Positions 4,403-28,162 are shown, numbered from the stretch's first letter. The stretch: DNA of 57,581 nt from a virus (IMGVR_UViG_3300013094_000056:1-57581), one strand, 5' to 3'. Notes: generated by a model not told the origin, from the sequence alone. Numbers and translations are program-made.

Positions 4403-4868
4403 CGGACTTTTCCTTTTTGCTGATTGGCTTCAGAACGACCGCACCTTCGTGCTTGACAAGGTCGGCAAACCAGAATGGGGCAGGAACCTGATGAATCCCG
4501 AGGCCAGCGCCGCGATGGCATGGCATGCAGAGAACCATAAGGTTGCGAAGGTCATCAGGACTTTGTGGGAGCGGATTTCCGCCCTTCATGCCATCTGCAG
4601 CGAAACCATAAGCATCCCACTGATGCATGATGCGCAGAACCTTTGAAGGGTCCGCATTATTCCACTCGCTCCACTCGATGATGTAGTGGTGGACCTCAAG
4701 GTGGTCTTTTCCGCCACACTTCCAGCAGCCGAGGCCGAGCTTGTGAACGAGGCGGTGCTTGTTGGCATCAAATTCAGCAGTGTTTGCGCTGCCCCGATCG
4801 ATGTGTTCAGGGTACTCGACATCAACCCGAAGACTTTCGAGCTGCTCGTGAGCTGGTGTTTTATCCAT
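4395..4868 (-). CDS. HNH-like zinc-binding protein
   Basis: CWKC...LEVHH...NLMVLCMPCH...GIH motifs. Confidence 0.65.
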   Translation of the reverse strand: MDKTPAHEQLESLRVDVEYPEHIDRGSANTAEFDANKHRLVHKLGLGCWKCGGKDHLEVHHYIIEWSEWNNADPSKVLRIMHQWDAYGFAADGMKGGNPLPQSPDDLRNLMVLCMPCHRGAGLGIHQVPAPFWFADLVKHEGAVVLKPISKKEKSDG

Positions 4869-5097
4869 TGTTCGAAGCCTCCGGAGTCAGTTTTGCGCCT
4901 ACACCACCGCTGACCAGAATAGCACTCCAGGCCATTGCGAATGCCTGATAGACTTCTGGGGTCAAAGTGTTATGCCACATTTGAGAGGCGAACGCCAGAG
5001 CAGCCATGAGCAGACCTGTGGCTGCGCCCACCCTTTGCATTGAATATGTTTTGTTGTCGCTCTCTGTGAAGAGGTCTGTGACGAATTTCAAACCCAC
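4861..5097 (-). CDS. Putative holin (2 TM)
   Basis: 78 aa, two hydrophobic helices, directly after the endolysin. Confidence 0.6.
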   Translation of the reverse strand: MGLKFVTDLFTESDNKTYSMQRVGAATGLLMAALAFASQMWHNTLTPEVYQAFAMAWSAILVSGGVGAKLTPEASNNG

Positions 5098-5612
5098 GAC
5101 AATGCCTTTTCCGTTATTCTTTCTGTCCTGGCGAGCCAGCCATTGCCGAACACTTTGAATGTCGGCAAGCCTTTGTAGAAATTGGCTCGAGCCTTTTGAT
5201 AGTCGCCAACGAGGGTCTTGATTCCTGTCGCTCGCAGAAACTGCTGCGCCGCGAGGATCGTCTGTGTTCCTGCATGACCATCAGCCGGGCAACCGACGAT
5301 CTTCTGAAGTTCCATCACTGCACGACCATCGCCGCCGTTGACTGCAAAATCAAAAACACACAGCGCCAACGGCAGAGGATATTTGTCGCAGCTCGTGGCT
5401 TGCCAATATCGATTGCGGTAAAGCGGTGTGACACCGATCACTGACAGCGCCTTGATGTCATTGACCGAAACAGGATGGCCGACCCAGCTTTCCCAGCTGC
5501 TTTTTGTCACACCGAGATTGGTTGCGCCACCGGGATCAGCCGGATTGTCCACGAAACCACCCTCTTCACCAAGTGTGACTGGCAAGCACTGAAGAAAAGG
5601 GTCTACCGGCAT
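5088..5612 (-). CDS. Endolysin, glycoside hydrolase family 108 with C-terminal PG-binding domain
   Basis: EGGFVDNPADPGGATNLGVT motif; FDFAVNGG; FGNGWLAR. Confidence 0.9.
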   Translation of the reverse strand: MPVDPFLQCLPVTLGEEGGFVDNPADPGGATNLGVTKSSWESWVGHPVSVNDIKALSVIGVTPLYRNRYWQATSCDKYPLPLALCVFDFAVNGGDGRAVMELQKIVGCPADGHAGTQTILAAQQFLRATGIKTLVGDYQKARANFYKGLPTFKVFGNGWLARTERITEKALSWV

Positions 5613-5627
5613 CTCAGTCTCTTTCGT

Positions 5628-5981
5628 TTACTTCATGGGCGGTGTGTGAACGCCCAAGCCAAGGAAGTTGGAGAGTGCCGCGAGCAAGCTCACAACGATC
5701 GCAAGGATGGCGATCCAGTTGGAGTGACCGTCTTTTCGCTCTTTCTTGGCCCCTTGCTCGTGGCCTTCTTGAACCTTCAAAGAGATGATGTCTCGGTGAA
5801 GGCCAGCCACAAGATCTTTGATCTCTTTAAAGCCAGCATCAACCTTGATTTCAAACCTGTCCATACGGTCGTTCAAGGTGTCCTCCACCCGCTGAATGCT
5901 TCTTCCAGACGCCTCAGCCATTGCCTGCGCCTTTCCAATTTCAATGCCCAGTTCGGCATGGGTGGGTGAGATCGTGGACAT
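5628..5981 (-). CDS. Coiled-coil protein with C-terminal TM (holin/antiholin-like)
   Basis: Heptad pattern followed by WIAILAIVVSLLAAL; upstream of the endolysin. Confidence 0.55.
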   Translation of the reverse strand: MSTISPTHAELGIEIGKAQAMAEASGRSIQRVEDTLNDRMDRFEIKVDAGFKEIKDLVAGLHRDIISLKVQEGHEQGAKKERKDGHSNWIAILAIVVSLLAALSNFLGLGVHTPPMK

Positions 5982-5987
5982 CGGGAA

Positions 5988-6284
5988 TTACCCGTAGAAC
6001 GAAACTAGCAGGGTGGAGCCACCAGCGTTGGTGGAGATGAATTGGATGGAAGAAAGATCTCCTGCAAAACCCATAGGCTCAAGGCTGACCGGCATGATCA
6101 TGCCACCGCCAAAAGCAGCCGTTGGTGCGACGCCATCATCACGCCAATTGACAGCCTGAGTTGCCGCCTGAATGAGTGCAAATTTGGATTTTGCAGGGAC
6201 GGTGAGATTTTGAGCGGCGGAGTTGGTGAGCGTCAGTGTTGCAAAACCAAGAGGCGAATACTGACCGGGGAAAAGATTCGACAT
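5988..6284 (-). CDS. Small structural/hypothetical protein
   Basis: 98-aa ORF in the late operon. Confidence 0.55.
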   Translation of the reverse strand: MSNLFPGQYSPLGFATLTLTNSAAQNLTVPAKSKFALIQAATQAVNWRDDGVAPTAAFGGGMIMPVSLEPMGFAGDLSSIQFISTNAGGSTLLVSFYG

Positions 6285-19701: not shown

Positions 19702-20192
19702 GAAATCCCCCAGTTGGTGCCATAATCCTGAGCGTACCCAAGATATGTGCGACCCCAAACCGTTGTGGTGAGCTGAAGCTGACCAACTGTCAGATTTTCA
19801 GCCTGCTTAGGCACGACCATGCTTGCACTGGTGCCTTCGTCGCTCGAAGACTGAACGATGCCAGTCGTAAAGCCGAGCATGTTGTTCTGCTTGCGCAGGT
19901 ACTGAAAAAAGCCATACTGGGTGGTTTCTACGGTGATGTAGATCAAGCCCGGAACATCGGGTGCCCATGTGGCAAGAAGGTGCCCTGCAAGGTTGTAAAC
20001 CATCTGCAGGTAGATCGGGCCAGGAACACACATGAACGCAGTGTTGACGGTTGCGGCTGCCGTGTTGTACGCATAGCCGATAACCGGAGAGGTTGATGGC
20101 AGGTATTCCGCAGGCACACCCATCACGCCATAAACCCAAGCAGAGAAACCTGCCTCGGTGGGGATCGGTGTGTAGGGATATGTGCTTGCCAT
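19698..20192 (-). CDS. Head-tail adaptor (DUF4054-like)
   Basis: YNLAGHLL...G.VQSSSDEGTS...T.WGR.YL motifs. Confidence 0.7.
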   Translation of the reverse strand: MASTYPYTPIPTEAGFSAWVYGVMGVPAEYLPSTSPVIGYAYNTAAATVNTAFMCVPGPIYLQMVYNLAGHLLATWAPDVPGLIYITVETTQYGFFQYLRKQNNMLGFTTGIVQSSSDEGTSASMVVPKQAENLTVGQLQLTTTVWGRTYLGYAQDYGTNWGIS

Positions 20193-20214
20193 TGTGCCTC
20201 TCCGGTTTCGTCAG

Positions 20215-20784
20215 TTAGGCGTTCTTGGCTTTTCGGCCACGCGGAGCACCCTTCGTCGGATTGATCCGCAGACCTTCTTCCAGCTTGGGTGCAGTCATTT
20301 CAGGGTCGCTCTGACCGACCGACTCAAATTCCATCTCGAAACCGGTCGAGTCAGCATTGCTGCCCATTTCATTTGCAATTTCGCGCAGACCATAGTCCGA
20401 GACGATTGCGAGGTTCTGGCGACGCTTCACGCCGAGATCAGTCAGCATGCCCATGTTGTGCGCCTTGACATCTTCGCAGATGGCGCGCGGCACAGCCTTG
20501 TCAAGCGACCAGATCAGCTTGACCACACCCTTGGCCTTGGCAGTGCGAATTTCTTCCAGAGCCACAGCCCCAGCGCTGAATTCAAGCTGCTGGATGAGCT
20601 TTTCTGCCTGCCCAGGAAACACTTCGCCGCCGAACTGAACCTGCTGGCCAGCCGCGATTTCGAGGTATTTCGGAGGAAGCTGCTTTGCGTCCATCCGGTT
20701 GCCGTTGCCATCGACAGCAAAATCGAGCCGGTAGTAAACCTGCCTGTTCTGAGCCGTGCAGTTGACCACAAAAAGTCGTGCCAT
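20215..20784 (-). CDS. Conserved hypothetical protein following the capsid gene
   Basis: ~189 aa, LFVVNCTAQ start, phage-like codon usage. Confidence 0.6.
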   Translation of the reverse strand: MARLFVVNCTAQNRQVYYRLDFAVDGNGNRMDAKQLPPKYLEIAAGQQVQFGGEVFPGQAEKLIQQLEFSAGAVALEEIRTAKAKGVVKLIWSLDKAVPRAICEDVKAHNMGMLTDLGVKRRQNLAIVSDYGLREIANEMGSNADSTGFEMEFESVGQSDPEMTAPKLEEGLRINPTKGAPRGRKAKNA

Positions 20785-20859
20785 TTCCAAATCCTAAACG
20801 AGTGGTGCGAGTGTAACCGCCGTGAATGCACTCGCAACATCCACGGCGGCTACATGGTA

Positions 20860-21885
20860 TTACTGGTAGTTGGCTGTGATGATCGTCAGAGCCTGCGGGC
20901 GAGGAGCCCAGCCCGGAGTCAGACGCCATTCGGACAGAACGTCCGTAGCGCCACCAGCAAGAGGCGAGATGATTTCGCGCGGAGCAGCCATGTCCGAATA
21001 CTGCGTCAAGCAGGTCGGGTTGTTCGGCTTCAGCGTCGCGAAAACGTTGGTGTTCAGAGCGGCAGGGCCACTCGGAACAGCGACTTCAGGCATCGCAATC
21101 AGGATGATGTCGGCATTCGGCGAACCACCAGCACCCTGCAGGGTGTCGTCGTATGCCCACACCAGCTCATCGTCGTTGGCAACCAGCATGTTCTTCAGAA
21201 CTTCGACAGTCGAAGCGGTGCCAGCACCAATGCGCTGGAACTGCGTCAGGCTGACGACGTTGTATTCGAACTGAGACAGCGTGCGCTGCGGACCAAGCAC
21301 AACGAACTTGCGGCCGATGCCCAGCTGCAGAGTGCGCGTCTTGATCTGAGCGATCTGGTTCGCCAGGAAGAACGACATCTGACCATTGTCATAGGTGACG
21401 ATGGTGTCGTTGCCGTACTGGTCAGGCGGCAGGTTGACGGCAGTTGCGCCCGGAGCGTTCAGGAAGCCTTCACCATACTGCGGCTGCAGACCGAACAGGG
21501 CTGCATCGCGAGCCTGCTGGAAGTGAGCCTGACGCATGCCGAGGCGATACGCTTCAGGAACCGCAAAACCCCAACGACCGCCAGCGGCGACGTCATGGTG
21601 ATCATATTCAGCGCGAACGCGGAACTGATAGGTGTTGGTGTTGAACATCTGGGCGCTGATGTCCACACCCGGAAGCTGGTTGGCAGTCGACTGCGAACCG
21701 CTGATCTTGGTGCGGATATTCAGCTGCTTCGCATAGACGACCAGATCGTCTTCAGCCAGCTTGGCGCGCAACTTGCCGCCTTCCAGGACTTCGGTGTAAC
21801 CCGAAGCCTGCTGGAACTGCATGAAAATTTCCGGTTCGCGGAACGAAGGTTCGATGATCTTGTATGCACCGGCGTTAATAGCCAT
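20860..21885 (-). CDS. Major capsid protein (HK97 fold)
   Basis: 341 aa, strongly biased codons, AAAGGA RBS, LFG......GFLN motif, position after scaffold and decoration genes. Confidence 0.8.
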   Translation of the reverse strand: MAINAGAYKIIEPSFREPEIFMQFQQASGYTEVLEGGKLRAKLAEDDLVVYAKQLNIRTKISGSQSTANQLPGVDISAQMFNTNTYQFRVRAEYDHHDVAAGGRWGFAVPEAYRLGMRQAHFQQARDAALFGLQPQYGEGFLNAPGATAVNLPPDQYGNDTIVTYDNGQMSFFLANQIAQIKTRTLQLGIGRKFVVLGPQRTLSQFEYNVVSLTQFQRIGAGTASTVEVLKNMLVANDDELVWAYDDTLQGAGGSPNADIILIAMPEVAVPSGPAALNTNVFATLKPNNPTCLTQYSDMAAPREIISPLAGGATDVLSEWRLTPGWAPRPQALTIITANYQ

Positions 21886-21918
21886 GGTTCATTTCCTTTT
21901 CAAAAAATGGCTTCAGGC

Positions 21919-22830
21919 TTACGCCGTGGTGCCGCCAGTCAGCTGGATGATAGCGCAAGCGCCGTTGAAGTTCCAGTTCGTGTAGCCAGTTGCAGTGCTG
22001 TTCGAAACAGTCATGCAACCCGACGGCTGAACGTCCAGAACGGTTACCGGCAGAGCGCCGCCGTTGGCAGCAATCGTGCCGCCCGACGAGTACGTGCCAT
22101 AATAGCCCGAAGCTGCCAGAGCCAGAACAACGACCGTGGTCGAAGTCGTGCTGACGACAGTCCAGATGCCATTGAACGTACCACCGGTGCCACCAGTGCT
22201 GACGATGCCCGACACTTCAATGTCGTCGCCAGCCGAGAGAACTGCCGTCAGGTTGGTGCCGACAGTGAAGGTGATCTGGCCACCCGAAGTCGCCGCCCAT
22301 ACCGCACCAGTGATGGTGACGGCATTGTAAGCTGGAGCATAAGGCACCAGTTCCTGAGCGGTGAAGTCCCAGCTGACCTGCTGGTTGATTTCGCCGCCAC
22401 GCAGCGAGATCAACGACGGATCGCAAGCAACGGCGATACGTGCACGCGAGCCCAGTGCGTAGAAGTTCAGGCTCTGGCCCGAACCTGCAGTCGGGACCGT
22501 GTTGTTCGGGTCGGTGACGAGGTTGTACGTCTGATCGAACACAGTGAAGCCGACCAGAGCAGTCGAGCCGGTGAGCGAGGTTGCACGACCGATGACCGGA
22601 CCCAGAGTCTGGCGAGGGCCAGTGCTGCTGATGGGCGAGATATCAGCATAGATGCCGATGCCACCCCACATCACAGTCGTTTCGCTCTGCGAGACGATGC
22701 CCGACTGCAGTGCGTTGCGTGTCGAAGGATCAGGGTAAGCCTGACCCTGGATAACGCCGGTGGACGAAGCGCCGTTGAACAGCCCCTGACCAGCGGTCGT
22801 CAGCGAAGGATAACCGTTATTTGCAGCCAT
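21919..22830 (-). CDS. Capsid decoration/cement protein with an inserted beta module
   Basis: WGGIGI...SRARIAV.CDP...VSWDF; between scaffold and capsid genes. Confidence 0.7.
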   Translation of the reverse strand: MAANNGYPSLTTAGQGLFNGASSTGVIQGQAYPDPSTRNALQSGIVSQSETTVMWGGIGIYADISPISSTGPRQTLGPVIGRATSLTGSTALVGFTVFDQTYNLVTDPNNTVPTAGSGQSLNFYALGSRARIAVACDPSLISLRGGEINQQVSWDFTAQELVPYAPAYNAVTITGAVWAATSGGQITFTVGTNLTAVLSAGDDIEVSGIVSTGGTGGTFNGIWTVVSTTSTTVVVLALAASGYYGTYSSGGTIAANGGALPVTVLDVQPSGCMTVSNSTATGYTNWNFNGACAIIQLTGGTTA

Positions 22831-22858
22831 TGTCTTTTACCTTTTCAGAAGGAGGTGA

Positions 22859-23695
22859 TCAGTGAAAGCCACCAGCGCGGTTGACGCGGCCAGTGAAACC
22901 GCTCATCCACGAACCAGGTTCACCAACGAATTCGTTGATGATGTGGCCGCCAGCCTGACGCGAGATTTCGCGCAGCTGACCCGGCATCACGTCAGCACCA
23001 CGACGAGCAGCAGCCGCCGAGTCCGCATAGATTTCGGTGAGGATCGTGTCAAGCATCGCGTCATCGCTGACGGCCGACAGACGGGCATTCGCCCACTTGG
23101 GCGAGTTGGCCTGCAGCTTGCTGCCGAGGCGACGCTTGTACTGCGTCGGGGTTTCACCCGAGAGCGGTGCCGGAGCGCGGTCACCAAACGCCTGAAAGGC
23201 CGGGTCAGCAGCTTCCTGGATGGCAGCGAACCGTTCACGATCGATGTCATTCAGCATTGCAGGTGCACGACGATTCATGGCAGCGATTTCACTGCGCAGG
23301 GCAGCGAGTTCTGCACGGGTGGAGTCAGCCACGCGCTTGTCACCTTCTTCATCCATATAGTCGTCATCGTCGTCCTTGCGACGAGCGTCCATACGCTCTT
23401 CTTCCGAGTCCTTGCGACGCTTGTCAGCAGCGACTTCGCGCGGTTCGCCGGGCTCTTCGACCTTCATGTCGTCGTCATCGTCGTCGCACTTGGCGTCTTC
23501 GACCTTTTCTTCAGCGTCCATGCGCTCTTTTTCTTCAGCGTCCTTGCGCTTGGAATCCATCTTTTCTTCCATGGAATCCATGCGGCTGCTCAGCGAGTCG
23601 AACTTTGCGATCGAATCACGGATCATGTCAGCGATCTGGCCGAGCTTCTCGTCAGCATCGCTGATAATTTCATTCTTGTGGCCCTGTTCAGGCAT
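22859..23695 (-). CDS. Scaffolding protein
   Basis: Highly charged D/E/K repeats; FGDRAPAPLSGETP.QY.RRL motif; start MPEQG at 23695 with AGGAG RBS. Confidence 0.75.
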   Translation of the reverse strand: MPEQGHKNEIISDADEKLGQIADMIRDSIAKFDSLSSRMDSMEEKMDSKRKDAEEKERMDAEEKVEDAKCDDDDDDMKVEEPGEPREVAADKRRKDSEEERMDARRKDDDDDYMDEEGDKRVADSTRAELAALRSEIAAMNRRAPAMLNDIDRERFAAIQEAADPAFQAFGDRAPAPLSGETPTQYKRRLGSKLQANSPKWANARLSAVSDDAMLDTILTEIYADSAAAARRGADVMPGQLREISRQAGGHIINEFVGEPGSWMSGFTGRVNRAGGFH

Positions 23696-24815
23696 GGGTT
23701 TTCTCCTGGGTGGCGATTGCTGAACGAGAATGCAGGGCCATGGTGGCGGCTGCAACCCGAAGCAGACCTAGACGCGGGGTGGGTTTTGCGTTGCCGATTT
23801 GAATTGGGCCTTGAGAGTCGGCAATCGCATCAATACTCTCAACACCGGTAGGATCACCCCCTTTGTCCCACACACCATTAGCGCAAATGGCAATGTGATC
23901 GAGCAGGGATGGTTTGCCCTCAATGAGCATTACCTTGCCGTCTTCCAGCGTGACCCTATCATTTTCTGTGGGATCAGCGAAGTTGACAGCTGGGCTTGTG
24001 GACAGCTGATTGTCGCGCATTTCTTTCGCAGCTTCAGCGTCGTAAACTTTGGCGATCCCCCAGACTTCATCTGGTTTGTCAGCCGGGATATAAGGGAGCA
24101 TGATCGAGCCGATCACACGGTCACTGAATTCTTTATCGTTCAGGAGAGACTTTTCTGGGTGTTCCCAGATCACAGCAAGACCGTTGCACCGAGCTAGGAA
24201 TTCTTCGTTGATGTAGATGCTCGGATCTCTCCAAACAAATTCCTGCCGTGCATGGCGATAGCTGACGCCAGTGCCGGTAATACGGATAGCGAACAGCCAT
24301 ACGTTTTCGTACCTCTGAGGACTCGTCAGGCGATTCTCCGAGATCGCCCTAGCAACCCCTAGCTCGTCCATCGAGAAACGCTCCAGGGCCACCTGGACGC
24401 CAGGATGCATAGGCTGAGGAGGGGCACTGATCGGCGACCAAGCGAAACCATCATGCTCATCAAGATTGAGCTTGGGGGTAAACTGATGGCTGACCTTGAC
24501 CAAGAACGTTGTGAAGTCGACGTCTGTGCTGGGAGCAGGCTCTTGCGCAGGGTCCGCAGGTGTCGCAATCAAAGCCTGCTCAATCGGAGTTTCAGCAGGA
24601 GCAAGTGTGCGTGTCCAGAAAGCCATCTCGCTTTCTTTGATGACGACACCTGCCTCTTCGTAGGTTTCCCGAATTGCGCCTTCTTCAAGCGTTTCGTCGC
24701 CTTCCAGCTTTCCGCCGGGGATCGCCCACTCGTTGGGGTGATCAGCGCCGTTGCCGCGCCTCAGAAAGAGAGCGGTGTCACCAGCGACGAAAAGGATGCC
24801 CGCAGCACGAATCAT
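23688..24815 (-). CDS. Nudix hydrolase fused to DUF2213-like putative prohead protease
   Basis: Nudix box GGKLEGDETLEEGAIRETYEEAG; C-terminal RITGTG...EHP...STSPAV...DHIAIC..GVWD; start 24815 (ATGA overlap). Confidence 0.8.
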   Translation of the reverse strand: MIRAAGILFVAGDTALFLRRGNGADHPNEWAIPGGKLEGDETLEEGAIRETYEEAGVVIKESEMAFWTRTLAPAETPIEQALIATPADPAQEPAPSTDVDFTTFLVKVSHQFTPKLNLDEHDGFAWSPISAPPQPMHPGVQVALERFSMDELGVARAISENRLTSPQRYENVWLFAIRITGTGVSYRHARQEFVWRDPSIYINEEFLARCNGLAVIWEHPEKSLLNDKEFSDRVIGSIMLPYIPADKPDEVWGIAKVYDAEAAKEMRDNQLSTSPAVNFADPTENDRVTLEDGKVMLIEGKPSLLDHIAICANGVWDKGGDPTGVESIDAIADSQGPIQIGNAKPTPRLGLLRVAAATMALHSRSAIATQEKTHA

Positions 24816-25141
24816 TTGCAATTCCAAGCCTTGCGCGACCAATAGTTGGCCGATGTTTTGTCGTCGGTGTTGCCTTGACCGGCAGAGCGAGCGCAATAAG
24901 ATTCGCGGTGTTCGTCGCTGTTTTTCTTGATTCGCATGTTCGGATCGCCGAATTCAACCTTCTTGACATTGCCAGTCTTTGGGTCTTCAACGTAGACCTT
25001 GGACTTTTTGATGTCACCCTTCATGGGCTTGTTCAGCTCGACTTTCCGGCCATGGTATTCAGCGTCAACACGCGCCTTGAGTGCACCGGCAGCATCGGCC
25101 AGCGCGCTCATCGACTTACTGTTGACCTTGGTTTGCGTCAT
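24812..25141 (-). CDS. Small basic protein with a KKVEFG...IKK...R.SYCAR...NYWSR..W domain (putative internal head protein)
   Basis: Motif resembles an uncharacterised DUF seen in many phages and large DNA viruses; N-terminal leader ends ARVDA. Confidence 0.6.
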   Translation of the reverse strand: MTQTKVNSKSMSALADAAGALKARVDAEYHGRKVELNKPMKGDIKKSKVYVEDPKTGNVKKVEFGDPNMRIKKNSDEHRESYCARSAGQGNTDDKTSANYWSRKAWNCK

Positions 25142-26763
25142 TGTTTGCGCTGCCTGTGAATCATGCCGCGAGCGTAGCCCTTCTTATAGGCGTCAGACTC
25201 TTTACCCTTGTAAGGGTTGTAAGCCTTCTCGCCACGACGACCGTCTCCGAAACCTTCCTTCTCAATTTCCTGGAGATTCTGCTCTTCGGAAGCATCCGAA
25301 TACCCACCTTCACTGGTGCCAGCACCGGGCAGGTCACGTTCGGCGTCCGATCTACGATCAGGAAGCTGTTCAACACGGCGGATATCTTTGATCTCGCTGC
25401 CGAGCTGCTGTTTGGCTACTTTCTTTGCGTCGACATTGTGCTTTGCACGAACAGTAACAGTCGACTCTTTGCCTGCGCTGTTGATGTAGACGACGCTGAA
25501 ACGCTGATCGCCGGCAGCGTCCATTTTGGAAACAGCAGAATCAACCTTTGCATAAAGCGCATCAGCCATGTGCAAGGCGCGCTGCAAAGGCGGCAGGCTG
25601 TCCATGCGCTCGGTGAATTCGCCATACGTGTACTGCGGGAGCGTCGTGGCGTACTTGAGAGCTTCGCTCTTGCTGTAGTCCTTCACATCCAAACGGATGA
25701 TGGACTTCTTACCACCAGAGTTGCTCATGATAACCCATTCGTCGCCTTCTTGGCGGATGGTGGGTTCAGAGTCAGCCTTGGCCGATTCATCTCCATTGTT
25801 GAACTTGGTTTTGCTGGAGGGCCACTCTTCCATTGAACCGTTAGCCAGCTTGACGATAACGCTATCACCGCTTTCGGCCATCACGTTTCCAGCCTTACTG
25901 CCCATTTTCACAGGGCAATCGGTGTAGAAACCGTACTTATCGTAGAGACCTTTCTCATAAGAACCGCCAGGTTCACCGGGCTTGGGCTTATCACCACCAT
26001 ATTCTTTGCGCCAGCTCAAATGCTCTTTTCGAGCCTTGGAAACTTCTTCATTGTATTTTTCGGCAGCAGCCTCTTGTGCGATCGGATACATGCGATCCTT
26101 GCTCAAGGCTCGCATGTATTTGTTTTTCGCCTTCTGCTCAGCCATATTGTAGGCGGCTTTACCTTGCTCAAGAGTCAGAGAGCGCGGATCTTTCTTATTG
26201 CTCTTCTTCTCAGGTTCAGACTTCTTAGGTTCAGACTTTTCAGGCCCTGACTTAACGCTCCCAGCCTTCTGACCATTGAATTTACCGCCAGCACCGCCCT
26301 TGATTTCACCGTCTCCACCGACGAGAACCGGAGAACCCTTCATGGTGATCCAATGCTCTTTTCCATCATCGGCATCCGCACGACCAAGGATGGCTTCGTC
26401 GGCATCAGCCACAACACCAGCCTTGACTGCAGCTTCCTTGGCTTCAGATTCGCTGGCGAATGGTCCGCGATGTTCCTTGAAGCCGGGCACCTCGAAGAAG
26501 AATTCACCGTTCTTTTCGTAAACGCAGTCGGCTTTGGCGGCATCCCCACGCGGGTTATAGGGGACATCCGCACCCTTTTTGGCGAGCTGCCGCCAAGGCT
26601 TGTTGTAGTGATCGCGATCGCGCGGATCGGGCCGATCGGCATCCCCACGCGCCTTGTTATAGGCGATGGCGACAGCCTGCTTCTGAGGCTTGCCAGCTTT
26701 CATCTCGGTGGCGATATTGCGACTGAAACCGGGTGTGCCTTCTTTGGCTTTCTCAAGCGGCAT
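25138..26763 (-). CDS. Modular Lys-rich protein (putative head-packaged polyprotein)
   Basis: 541 aa of short modules separated by xxD-[ASC] motifs; N-terminal NIATEMKAGKPQKQAVAIA, internal WIT.KG.PV.VGGDG.IKGGAGG, C-terminal RMF-like motif. Confidence 0.7.
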   Translation of the reverse strand: MPLEKAKEGTPGFSRNIATEMKAGKPQKQAVAIAYNKARGDADRPDPRDRDHYNKPWRQLAKKGADVPYNPRGDAAKADCVYEKNGEFFFEVPGFKEHRGPFASESEAKEAAVKAGVVADADEAILGRADADDGKEHWITMKGSPVLVGGDGEIKGGAGGKFNGQKAGSVKSGPEKSEPKKSEPEKKSNKKDPRSLTLEQGKAAYNMAEQKAKNKYMRALSKDRMYPIAQEAAAEKYNEEVSKARKEHLSWRKEYGGDKPKPGEPGGSYEKGLYDKYGFYTDCPVKMGSKAGNVMAESGDSVIVKLANGSMEEWPSSKTKFNNGDESAKADSEPTIRQEGDEWVIMSNSGGKKSIIRLDVKDYSKSEALKYATTLPQYTYGEFTERMDSLPPLQRALHMADALYAKVDSAVSKMDAAGDQRFSVVYINSAGKESTVTVRAKHNVDAKKVAKQQLGSEIKDIRRVEQLPDRRSDAERDLPGAGTSEGGYSDASEEQNLQEIEKEGFGDGRRGEKAYNPYKGKESDAYKKGYARGMIHRQRKQ

Positions 26764-27001
26764 GGGGATTTTCCTTAGCGGTTTGATATGCCTGCTTGGC
26801 TTCGTGCCAATCAGCGCTGTTTTCTGCTACGCCTTGACCGCGTAGATAATTCTCGATGTTCTTGCCGTTGTGTTGGCCGAAGGCACGCGCCTTGACGACC
26901 ACGTGGCTTTCAGTGACAGTGACTGGCTTGGCAGGCTCAGCAGTCTTGGTGCGAGCGCGTTTCGCTTTGGGAGCGATTTCCATGCCGTCAGTTTCAAACA
27001 T
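26753..27001 (-). CDS. Hypothetical protein
   Basis: 82 aa overlapping both neighbours. Confidence 0.5.
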   Translation of the reverse strand: MFETDGMEIAPKAKRARTKTAEPAKPVTVTESHVVVKARAFGQHNGKNIENYLRGQGVAENSADWHEAKQAYQTAKENPHAA

Positions 27002-27320
27002 CAGCGTTCACGCCTTTGACAACTGTGCTGTGAATTTCGCGCAACAGCTTGAGTTCATCAATGATCATGCGATGGTCAGAATCGCGCTGCGCCCGCTCTT
27101 TGCGAGACATGACATCTTGACCGACCATGATGAGCGGGAGGAACACGAGCTGCAGGAGCGAAGAGCTAACGTACTGAACGATGTTTTCTGTGCTGGGCAG
27201 AAAGAAAGGGACCATGACGAAGGCGGCAAAAGCATAAACGCATTCCATGGTGGCGACCATCACAACGATGCGAACCGCCAGACCTTCATTGAATTTGCGA
27301 AAATGCTTAGAAACGCTCAT
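26994..27320 (-). CDS. DUF1003-like membrane protein
   Basis: Two TM segments; LQLVFLPLIMVGQ...D motif. Confidence 0.6.
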   Translation of the reverse strand: MSVSKHFRKFNEGLAVRIVVMVATMECVYAFAAFVMVPFFLPSTENIVQYVSSSLLQLVFLPLIMVGQDVMSRKERAQRDSDHRMIIDELKLLREIHSTVVKGVNADV

Positions 27321-28162
27321 GCCATTGCCTTGATCTTTGCCCTTGCTTCTTCAAGCGCCTTCTTGCCTTTTTCAGTCATACATTCCGCAGGTACAGACCT
27401 AAGAGAGAAAATAAAGCGGTAAGCACACTTGCAAAAAGGCAGTTCCGCAGGCTGTTCAATCTCGTCTGTGTATCCATCTTTGCCGACCTTCACCAAGCCT
27501 GAGCTGTGCGCCCAAGAATCACGCACCAGGAAGAACTTGCCTTCCCTAGCGTTGTGATCTGGACGTCCATCATAACCCCGCTGATGAACGTGACTCTGCC
27601 AATACCCACCAATAGCGCCACCATTAAGAGCAACAGTTGTATTAATTGCACTGAACAGCTTTGCATTCTGGTCGATTATGACTCTTCTTTCCTCAAAAGG
27701 CAACTGAGAAAGTGCCTTGCGCAGATTTATTTTTTCTTTATTCTTTTGTACAGTCTTGCTCCCGCCTTTGGGCACAGAAGTTGCCCATCCGCGAAAACGC
27801 TGCATTGTCTTCTCGATCGCCTGTGGTCGGTTGACTCTGATCAGGTCAACGCTGGCAGCAATACGACGATCCAGCTCTGCTCGCAGCTCTGGTTTGATCT
27901 GCTGAAGGCGGTAGGGTGTAACGCCAGGGTTGTATTTCAGCACACCGCCAAGGTCAACCTGTTTGCGAAAAACCGCATACATGGCATCGCGAGTCATCTG
28001 CTCAATTTCGGACATCGACTTCATGGAGCGTTCAGCCGCCAGACGGATTTGCTCCGACCAATAGGCAACACGCTCTTCACTGTCGTATCCGTGTTCAGTG
28101 ATGTCCGCTACCGCTGCGGTCAGCACTTCGTAATAAGTGGGTGATCCGTCTGGGTTAGGCAT
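27317..28162 (-). CDS. Head morphogenesis protein (SPP1 gp7/Mu gpF-like)
   Basis: IIDQ..K, W.S....YDGRPDH, PAELPFCKC motifs. Confidence 0.8.
   Translation of the reverse strand: MPNPDGSPTYYEVLTAAVADITEHGYDSEERVAYWSEQIRLAAERSMKSMSEIEQMTRDAMYAVFRKQVDLGGVLKYNPGVTPYRLQQIKPELRAELDRRIAASVDLIRVNRPQAIEKTMQRFRGWATSVPKGGSKTVQKNKEKINLRKALSQLPFEERRVIIDQNAKLFSAINTTVALNGGAIGGYWQSHVHQRGYDGRPDHNAREGKFFLVRDSWAHSSGLVKVGKDGYTDEIEQPAELPFCKCAYRFIFSLRSVPAECMTEKGKKALEEARAKIKAMA

Follow-up and report, generated by a model that had tools for sequence, protein, structure and literature searches.

The viral sequence IMGVR_UViG_3300013094_000056 (57,581 nucleotides, called the window here) carries a head gene module in which a protein of 541 amino acids (aa), p541, is encoded at positions 25138-26763. 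All features described are on the minus strand unless stated otherwise. From its sequence, p541 appears to be a head-module polyprotein in which a conserved 41 aa N-terminal module, the N-module, is followed by interchangeable small folded modules, the joints between them being [Arg/Lys]-x-Asp and then Ala or Ser. The excess of this motif, its position at module boundaries, its spread through the scaffold proteins of the lineage, and the family assignment of the prohead protease encoded nearby are shown here. Cleavage of the polyprotein by that protease, after Asp and within the procapsid, is considered probable. The family of N-module-headed polyproteins, its size, and the hypervariable slot that it occupies beside a NUDIX-fused DUF2213 protease are new. 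No description of such polyproteins or of the slot was found in the open literature, subscription-only papers being outside the search.

The Asp motif in the head proteins

The significance of the motif was assessed with 5,000 composition-preserving residue shuffles of each protein. In p541, [RK]xD[AS] is present eight times where 1.2 are expected (p=0.0002) and D[AS] 14 times where 6.9 are expected (p=0.0034), with a total of 16 D[ASC] sites. The scaffold protein has seven [RK]xD[AS] against 1.2 expected (p=0.0002) and 13 D[AS] against 7.4 expected (p=0.014). A first-pass annotation of this region had asked whether the motif is more frequent than composition predicts, and for [RK]xD[AS] in these two proteins it is. 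The nine other proteins of the head module (portal, NUDIX-protease, the 109 aa protein p109, MuF-like protein, capsid, decoration protein and three small proteins) have motif counts at the level of chance. The observed and expected numbers are 3 and 5.4 in the portal, 3 and 4.1 in the NUDIX-protease, and 2 and 1.5 in p109. The excess is therefore real but concentrated in p541 and the scaffold.

All ten of the boundary motifs that the annotation had listed for p541 are present, as RGD-A at residues 41 and 74, KAD-C at 79, VAD-A at 120, RAD-A at 130, YTD-C at 282, KAD-S at 331, RMD-S at 388, KMD-A at 415, RSD-A at 473 and YSD-A at 490. Those given for the scaffold (RMDS, KMDS, RKDA, RMDA, RKDS and VADS) are likewise all found. 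The modules had been described as about 30-60 aa, but the segments between the sites of p541 are 5-152 aa and are not uniform. The sites ATDS and RIDA in the portal, IADS in the protease and RVDA in p109, also put forward as part of the pattern, do exist, but none of these proteins is individually above chance. Such single sites gain weight only because they are conserved in relatives. The pair 'ID-A..AD-S' recurs in homologous protease tails, and the last 60 residues of 59 portals contain 73 D[AS] against 47.3 expected.

Relatives of p541 are mosaics broken at Asp

A database protein, P0001, is identical to p541, and a word-indexed search identified 33 more relatives, 308-913 aa long, whose coverage of p541 is between 7 and 100%. 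Of these, 32 start with the same approximately 41 residues and continue with differing sets and orders of modules. Dipeptide and site statistics were calculated for 33 proteins, with P0028 excluded as a protease fusion. No dipeptide is more over-represented in these homologs than DA (363 against 166.6 expected, z=15.2). Around their 495 D[AS] sites, Arg is enriched 5.9-fold at P3 and Pro 4.2-fold at P3'. Across 165 family proteins, the ratio of observed to expected D[AS] is 1.89, compared with 0.97 for the control, E[AS].

The positions at which modules are gained and lost were taken from clean insertions, defined as at least 15 aa between colinear ungapped matches. There are 66 distinct insertions of this kind, and in 46 of them each end is no more than 4 aa from a D[ASC] site; 1,000 trials with random placement averaged 5.5 such insertions and never exceeded 14. 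The expectation in the annotation that homologs would gain or lose modules at the Asp sites is thus borne out. P0001 and P0002, for instance, differ by one block from RGD-A to RGD-A and another from VAD-A to VAD-A. The ends of gapped BLAST high-scoring segment pairs (HSPs) give a weak signal, 44-49% being within 5 aa of a site against 29% at random, because gapped HSPs run across the joints. A coverage map of p541 did not discriminate.

Searching 50,697 phage records with p541 by tblastn returned nothing at E<=1e-5, and no cultured phage with such a polyprotein was found in the phage-record searches. Pfam matches among 85 family members are to four families, with PF04957 (RMF) in two members and the other three families in one member each; the window protein has none. 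The PF04957 matches in these two of the 85 proteins reach E=6e-11. An iterated RMF-like profile identified 11 copies in 10 of the 165 proteins, including P0019, P0029, P0004, P0034, P0126 and others across both searches. No part of the window p541 was recovered by this profile.

The modules of p541

The predicted structure of p541 has folded pieces at residues 13-38, 81-114, 197-255, 294-315, 332-374, 392-416 and 420-466, with low-confidence stretches between them. Of the 16 D[ASC] sites, 11 are outside the folded pieces and several are within 7 residues of a domain edge. The sites at 41, 79, 120, 331, 388 and 473 are just outside the edges of folded pieces, and the site at 415 is at the end of helix 392-416.

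The N-module (residues 1-41, 26641-26763; MPLEKA..KAGKPQKQAVAIAY.KARGD) ends at RGD-A, belongs to phrog_2423 and has a predicted helix-turn-helix at residues 13-38. Module 80-120 (26404-26526) is a beta3-alpha unit running from KAD-C to VAD-A; it is folded over residues 81-114, with a block predicted local distance difference test score (pLDDT) of 68-78, and the block is kept in 19 of 21 aligned proteins. Segment 131-282 (25918-26373) has a Gly-rich 'HWITMKG..GGAGGKF' sequence, a low-complexity stretch of Lys, Glu and Pro, and a helical hairpin at 197-255. In the 21-protein alignment its full length is shared only with P0002. A small beta domain makes up module 283-331 (25771-25917, YTD-C to KAD-S), with strands at 294-315, and the same module is the C-terminus of P0103. 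The second beta3-alpha unit, module 332-388 (25600-25770, KAD-S to RMD-S), has a block pLDDT of 74-79 and is present in 20 of the 21 aligned proteins, always with xD-[AS] before it.

This is followed by a helix module, residues 389-415 (25519-25599; SLPPLQRALHMADALYAKVDSAVSKMD), which contains three D-[AS] sites, has a helix predicted at 392-416 and scores 29.4 bits against the cargo-helix profile described below. Module 416-473 (25345-25518), a beta2-alpha-beta unit that ends at RSD-A, is the best-folded piece (block pLDDT 91-93) and is gained or lost as one unit among homologs. A 17 aa mini-peptide, AERDLPGAGTSEGGYSD (25294-25344), has D-A on both flanks; columns D473-G480 are nearly invariant in the 21-protein alignment, and the mini-peptide is present twice in P0005, P0006, P0008 and P0014. 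The C-terminal segment, residues 491-541 (25141-25293), is basic, predicted to be disordered and not recovered by the RMF-like profile.

There are two tiny conserved peptides flanked by D-A in these proteins, the 17 aa AERDLPGxxTxEGxYxxD, which is often double, and the 10 aa ADEAILGRxD (26374-26403). Both are too short to fold and could be spacers, protease exosites or released peptides. The sequence HPRGxDGKFGSGGG recurs straight after D-A sites, ahead of larger cargo, in P0005, P0006, P0012 and P0027. Its variant in the window is HWITMKG..GGAGGKF (p541 residues 131-158, 26290-26373).

At E<=0.01 no Pfam family matches p541, and relaxing the threshold to E<=10 adds only a match at the level of chance. 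NCBIfam has no match for p541, p109 or the protease domain. A protein atlas search returned unnamed viral clusters only, with scores of 0.80-0.82. With the p541 model, the VIA fold search recovered only generic helical hairpins over residues 186-266 (Z<=8.4), and no convincing solved fold for any module.

The N-module family

The match to phrog_2423 aligns residues 1-45 of p541 with profile positions 1-44 of 52 (E=6.6e-11). A profile built from 14 copies of the N-module, used with a cut-off of E<=1e-3, matches 5,222 cluster representatives, 1,238 of them at E<=1e-10. Of the 150 best matches, 147 carry the module N-terminally. Most of the 80 best viral-contig copies are stand-alone open reading frames (ORFs) of 43-60 aa with a Lys-rich tail. 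At the loci of stand-alone N-modules mostly no DUF2213 protease was detected, the local searches being of limited sensitivity and many of the loci short.

Of 136 proteins of at least 100 aa, 94 have a D[AS] after the N-module, compared with 13 of 82 proteins of 70 aa or less. Among the 80 loci, all three complete N-module ORFs of at least 200 aa (L014, L045 and L050) are accompanied by a DUF2213-type protease, compared with one (L067) of the 76 shorter complete ORFs. The L045 ORF (L045:3260-5605) encodes a 781 aa chain directly upstream of a canonical DUF2213 (E=5e-32), that of L050 is fused to DUF2213 (E=4e-44), and that of L014 is upstream of a window-type enzyme. The joints of the L045 chain differ, being G-K-D-[A/S]-L-P-L-P-V. 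They keep the pair of Asp and a small residue with other flanks, as would be expected were the extended site particular to each protease lineage. The simplest history would be that a small, widespread head-module protein gained cargo wherever an Asp-cutting protease was available.

The cultured Burkholderia phage BCSR129 (L166) has at 4640-6177 a MuF-like gene, a stand-alone NUDIX (142 aa) and a stand-alone N-module (58 aa). The parts match those of the window but are unfused, and this phage is a possible laboratory model.

The prohead protease

The NUDIX-prohead protease (23688-24815, 375 aa) combines a NUDIX domain (PF00293, E=5.7e-14) with a protease domain at 23868-24338 that matches PF09979, the DUF2213 family, with 16.4 bits (E=0.0096). 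Its C-terminal tail (23688-23867) has SID-A and IAD-S, then a predicted helix. Homologs in cultured phages score 30.0 bits (PdC23, a Pantoea phage, 40% identical) and 17.7 bits (QDWS, a Shewanella phage) against PF09979, and a precomputed match to this family exists for eight of 120 listed homologs. Another cultured relative with this type of protease is the Klebsiella phage Chronis. H219, S272, S274 and H307 are invariant in 48 protease sequences. The AlphaFold model of the protein has a pLDDT of 83.7. Searching BFVD with Foldseek returned targets named DUF2213 domain-containing protein (E=4.7e-10 and 7.9e-9), prohead protease of Shigella phage 2019SD1 (5.3e-9) and of Pseudomonas phage POR1 (1e-8), and prohead serine protease. 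These matches compare predicted with predicted structures and are read by the names of their targets, which are proteases and not Nudix enzymes. Fold searches of the PDB with the same model found only Nudix enzymes, over residues 1-162.

The position in the head module also fits a DUF2213 protease, which comes after the portal and MuF-like genes and is followed by the scaffold and then a PF09950 capsid. A single family, phrog_6216, spans both protease and scaffold. On sequence and model together, the NUDIX-protease is probably a divergent DUF2213 prohead protease, a distant member of the family. There is no D[AS] between its NUDIX and protease domains (23688-24815), therefore the Nudix hydrolase would stay joined to the protease after processing.

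The precedent for Asp comes from the T1-like phages. The mature N-terminus of the TLS capsid, read by Edman degradation, is ASDMGIW (PMC11447400). In TLS gp36 this sequence follows ..RGAKND, so that it begins directly after K-N-D; the equivalent place in T1 is ..GVKQD-AAATMGIW. The same paper estimates that 45 capsid residues are removed, which does not fit the RefSeq start of gp36, where ASDMGIW begins at residue 33, and the Edman sequence is relied upon here instead. The T1 and TLS proteases are canonical DUF2213 (PF09979, E=9e-26 and 4e-23), and the scaffold parts fused to them are full of KAD-A, KAD-S, ERD-A and KGD-A.

Since the window protease appears to be a divergent DUF2213 and the TLS cut follows K-N-D, the best-supported reading is that such a DUF2213 protease cleaves [KR]-x-D-[AS] behind the Asp, by extrapolation to this diverged enzyme. 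The annotation had proposed an Asp-specific DUF2213 protease. Its distant DUF2213 membership and the TLS cut speak for this, but the specificity of the window enzyme itself is extrapolated. No paper on an Asp-specific prohead protease was found in the open literature, with subscription-only papers again outside the search.

Scaffolds and a partly shared helix

The motif is a general property of the scaffolds of this protease lineage. The fused scaffold tails (n=33) have 511 D[AS] against 265 expected, with an E[AS] control ratio of 0.71, and the separate scaffolds (n=21) have a D[AS] ratio of 1.91. In the cultured phages, the scaffolds have 20 D[AS] against 9.8 expected (PdC23) and 15 against 8.7 (QDWS). 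The polyproteins are basic, with an isoelectric point (pI) of 8.9 for p541 and a family median of 9.0, compared with 4.7 for the window scaffold and 5.3 for the fused tails.

A helical segment was thought in the first-pass annotation to be shared by p541, the scaffold and p109. The p541 helix PLQRALHMADALYAKVDSA belongs to a cargo-helix family with the consensus PLDRALAAADALYAKADAA, which 50 of the 165 family proteins contain, with no match in shuffled versions of these proteins. In the lineage, a scaffold helix, KLDKILTHLDSMGKRMDAME, is located just after the protease domain or at the scaffold N-terminus. The N-terminal helix region of the window scaffold (23561-23665; ..KFDSLSSRMDSME..) scores 13.1 bits against the profile of this helix. 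The cargo-helix and scaffold-helix profiles align in register over 15 columns (P=1.4e-4, probability 52%), and an intermediate exists in P0127, which scores 31.6 bits on the scaffold profile. The strict cargo-helix profile has no match in the window scaffold or p109, the cargo-type helix is in only one of the 33 fused scaffolds, and the scaffold-type helix (at least 6 bits) is in only five of the 165 cargo proteins. The link between the two helices therefore rests on a modest profile-profile match, the strict-profile matches being few. The shared helix thus holds for the p541 family and the scaffold, in register, but not for p109, whose segment and leader are recognised by neither profile. A complex prediction for scaffold residues 1-80 with p541 residues 380-420 (score 0.03, mark 0.32) counts neither way. 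It is plausible that the helix is a co-assembly tag. The N-module, which the annotation had not singled out, is an equally plausible tag, and at least as good a candidate for the loading signal, which may also be neither of the two.

A variable cargo slot

The polyprotein gene is in a slot between the MuF-like gene (27317-28162; phrog_324, E=1.4e-15), which forms its upstream edge, and the protease gene. Among 80 related viral-contig loci with this protease, both genes were found in 67, and in these the distance between them is 2-5,390 bp. An ORF with an N-module is in the slot at 27 of the 80 loci, some of them near-identical, and is once fused to the protease itself. In the cultured phages PdC23 and QDWS, the MuF-like gene is followed directly by a protease-scaffold fusion. 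Other occupants of the slot start with 'MPLTAKGE..VFYAS.NKG..GVD' or 'MPTTSPAQHRLMEAAAHTPGGYGG', followed by xD-A and modules separated by D-[AS].

Two small heads other than the N-module ('MPLTAKGE..VFYAS.NKG..GVD' and 'MP.....Q.R.MEAAAH.....G') appear in the same role, some of them fused to the NUDIX-protease. They are found at L097:6712-8001, L098:7380-7991, L132:7459-7998 and L002:4860-6707, and all three heads begin with Met-Pro. Enzymes are also found among the cargo. At L134:6722-7732 a topoisomerase IB (TopIB; PF01028, E=4e-19) is behind a helix leader and the HPRxxDGKFGS motif. P0236 and P0216 have an ADP-ribosyltransferase label (PF03496) and PF19593, the cargo here replacing the scaffold after the protease domain.

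The small protein p109 (24812-25141) has a 26 aa leader that ends RVD-A, then a phrog_7595 domain. The leader, and the D-A before EYHG, are kept in the window protein and the four close homologs seen, and the leader is missing from the distant homolog in L037. Similar leaders head a p109-like domain and the topoisomerase IB in L134. p109 is likely to be a single-module cargo.

Other genes of the head module

The stop and start codons of neighbouring genes overlap, as ATGA for p541/p109 and for p109/protease and as ATGCCTGA for protease/scaffold, therefore p541, p109, the protease and the scaffold are probably translated as a coupled unit. The scaffold gene (22859-23695, ATG at 23695) encodes 278 aa, corresponds to phrog_6216 positions 297-535, where the protease covers positions 3-289, and specifies an acidic protein (pI 4.7). 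Earlier starts, which would give a protease ORF of 402 aa and a scaffold ORF of 298 aa, were rejected; the closest database match of the NUDIX-protease, P0168, is 99% identical and has 375 aa.

The portal gene (28998-30515; PF06381, E=2.1e-15) is separated from the MuF-like gene by an ORF of 177 aa. Between the MuF-like gene and p541 are a membrane-like ORF of 108 aa (26994-27320) and then an ORF of 82 aa. The 108 aa hydrophobic protein has a weak DUF1003 match (E=0.0067) and is kept at the same position in L086-L089. A probable decoration protein of 303 aa is encoded between the scaffold gene and that of the major capsid protein (20860-21885; PF09950, 26.2 bits with a cut-off of 26.8; phrog_6671, E=1.6e-125). 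On the plus strand, a stop-free ORF of 900 aa at 20182-22884 is antisense to the genes for the scaffold, decoration and capsid proteins. No protein family supports it, and its being open most likely just reflects the G+C-rich coding strand opposite.

Proposed processing of the polyprotein

It is proposed that p541 and p109 are produced together with the NUDIX-protease and the scaffold, and that all four enter the procapsid. There, the prohead protease, encoded two genes downstream of p541 and probably translationally coupled, would cut after Asp. The acidic scaffold, which has the same motif, would be shredded by the protease and leave, and the polyprotein pieces, mostly basic, would be retained with the DNA as small proteins of the head. 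The p109 leader of 26 aa would be removed at RVD-A. A broader proposal is that in phages with DUF2213 proteases the cargo slot holds fast-evolving libraries of mini-proteins (30-60 aa) and occasional enzymes, tagged with the N-module or the helix, which are co-assembled, cut after Asp, and injected as a host-takeover or anti-defence cocktail. This is possible but doubtful. Injection and action in the host are hinted at by the RMF-like modules in relatives and the enzymes in the same slot. Candidates for injected factors are the RMF-like ribosome silencers, a ProQ-like RNA-binding module, topoisomerase IB and ADP-ribosyltransferase.

Several observations weigh against processing and delivery of this kind. 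The cleavage of p541, its co-assembly into the procapsid, the retention of its pieces in the head, their delivery to the host and their function are all predicted from sequence, and pieces of 3-7 kDa might escape from the capsid as scaffold fragments do. The PF09979 score of the window protease (16.4 bits) is under the Pfam cut-off of 22, BLAST of this protease against those of T1 and TLS gives no match, and its Asp specificity is carried over by analogy from the T1-like phages. Avoidance of the motif is not seen in the capsid, portal or MuF-like proteins, whose ratios of 0.88, 0.99 and 0.92 are close to those of the E[AS] controls. The NUDIX-protease core is depleted of D[AS] (0.44), a result that was set aside as unspecific, E[AS] (0.64) and D[LIV] (0.41) being similarly low. 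No N-terminal propeptide site is seen in the window capsid, which has one D[AS], at residue 127, thus the one class of substrate that is backed by experiment in TLS is missing from this phage. Overall confidence in the p541 model is low (mean pLDDT 58.5, predicted template modelling score 0.26). Five of the 16 sites (300, 401, 408, 415 and 445) are inside predicted folded elements, therefore not every D[AS] can be a joint. The family counts come from related sequences and not from independent events.

The pattern might be a chance product of composition in a low-complexity protein, since A, D, K and E abound in p541, part of which is of low complexity. This is very improbable, given shuffles that keep the composition (p=0.0002), the 46 of 66 insertions at boundaries against a random maximum of 14, and the conservation of the pattern across thousands of relatives. 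It is also conceivable that p541 is never cut, with R-x-D-A/S serving as flexible charged linkers or as recombination junctions in a protein that acts intact, for example inside the head as a DNA-binding protein or in the cytoplasm as a late protein. Helical and charged linkers typically contain Asp, Ala, Lys and Arg, the motif is also within a helix (401, 408 and 415), and the head proteins do not avoid it. However, the preference is position-specific, with Arg 5.9-fold at P3 and Ala or Ser at P1', and is absent from E[AS]. The same motif is at the sequenced TLS cut, it follows the N-module mainly when cargo follows, and a degenerate motif of 12 nucleotides is presumably short for homologous recombination. 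An uncut p541 is accordingly regarded as unlikely.

A third possibility keeps the cleavage and removes the delivery. p541 would then be an auxiliary scaffold or core protein that helps to build or size the procapsid and is cut at the same sites, its fragments being expelled. The motif is common to p541 and the scaffold and the helices of the two are in register. The gene is part of the morphogenesis operon and probably translationally coupled to its neighbours, and several of the pieces are short and predicted to be disordered. Nevertheless, PdC23 and QDWS assemble heads without the polyprotein, and its content varies greatly among close relatives, which is ill-suited to a structural role. The basic p541 also contrasts with the acidic scaffolds, some modules in relatives resemble the host-directed factor RMF, and enzymes such as TopIB are found in the same slot. 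A purely scaffolding p541 is decidedly unlikely.

Comparison with known systems

The T1-like coliphages (protease-scaffold ST50 in T1 and gp33 in TLS; capsid ST47 in T1 and gp36 in TLS) have the same order of head genes as the window. Common to all are terL, a DUF1073-type portal, MuF-like protein, DUF2213 protease and scaffold, decoration protein and PF09950 capsid. As in the window, the scaffold parts of T1 and TLS are full of [KR]xD-[AS]. These phages differ in having neither the cargo polyprotein nor the NUDIX domain, and in having a capsid propeptide, unlike the window capsid.

In T4, gp21 cleaves after Glu and releases internal proteins that are loaded via a capsid-targeting sequence. 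The internal proteins IPI-III and Alt are loaded by a leader into the scaffold core, the leader is cut at the scaffold's own motif, and the cargo is ejected with the DNA. The proposed system would work in a similar way. In T4, however, the residue before the cut is Glu and every cargo protein has a gene of its own, whereas here the cut is predicted to be after Asp, with up to a dozen modules per chain. The prohead cleavage motif of giant phages is S/A/G-x-E. In these phages (phiKZ gp175, SPN3US gp245) many head proteins are reported to be cut by the prohead protease at a single short motif and then to enter the host (PMC7411985, PMC5694885). Their substrates are large, separate proteins with propeptides, handled by T4-like proteases, and not chains of 30-60 aa modules.

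The polyvalent proteins of phages and conjugative elements, as set out in Iyer et al. 2017 (PMC5512222), are mosaic, multi-module and fast-shuffling, are encoded beside virion genes, and are proposed to be packaged and to be delivered along with the DNA, some being proteolysed. They are, however, very large, with recognisable enzyme domains and their own peptidases, while p541 consists of tiny modules for which the prohead protease is the proposed cutter. The lack of recognisable enzyme domains places p541 outside the polyvalent proteins as Iyer et al. define them. The stand-alone phrog_2423 proteins differ from p541 in being the N-module alone, rarely with a D[AS] after the module.

If the proposed processing is true, [R/K]-x-D followed by Ala or Ser, beside a DUF2213 protease, would make the packaged proteome of thousands of uncultured phages readable from sequence. 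This would bring to light a large and so far unnamed stock of mini-proteins whose action falls within the first minutes of infection. An Asp-specific prohead protease with short loading tags would also be usable for packing foreign proteins into capsids. Finally, the polyprotein strategy, previously tied to RNA viruses, would be one that tailed phages use for the delivery of effectors.

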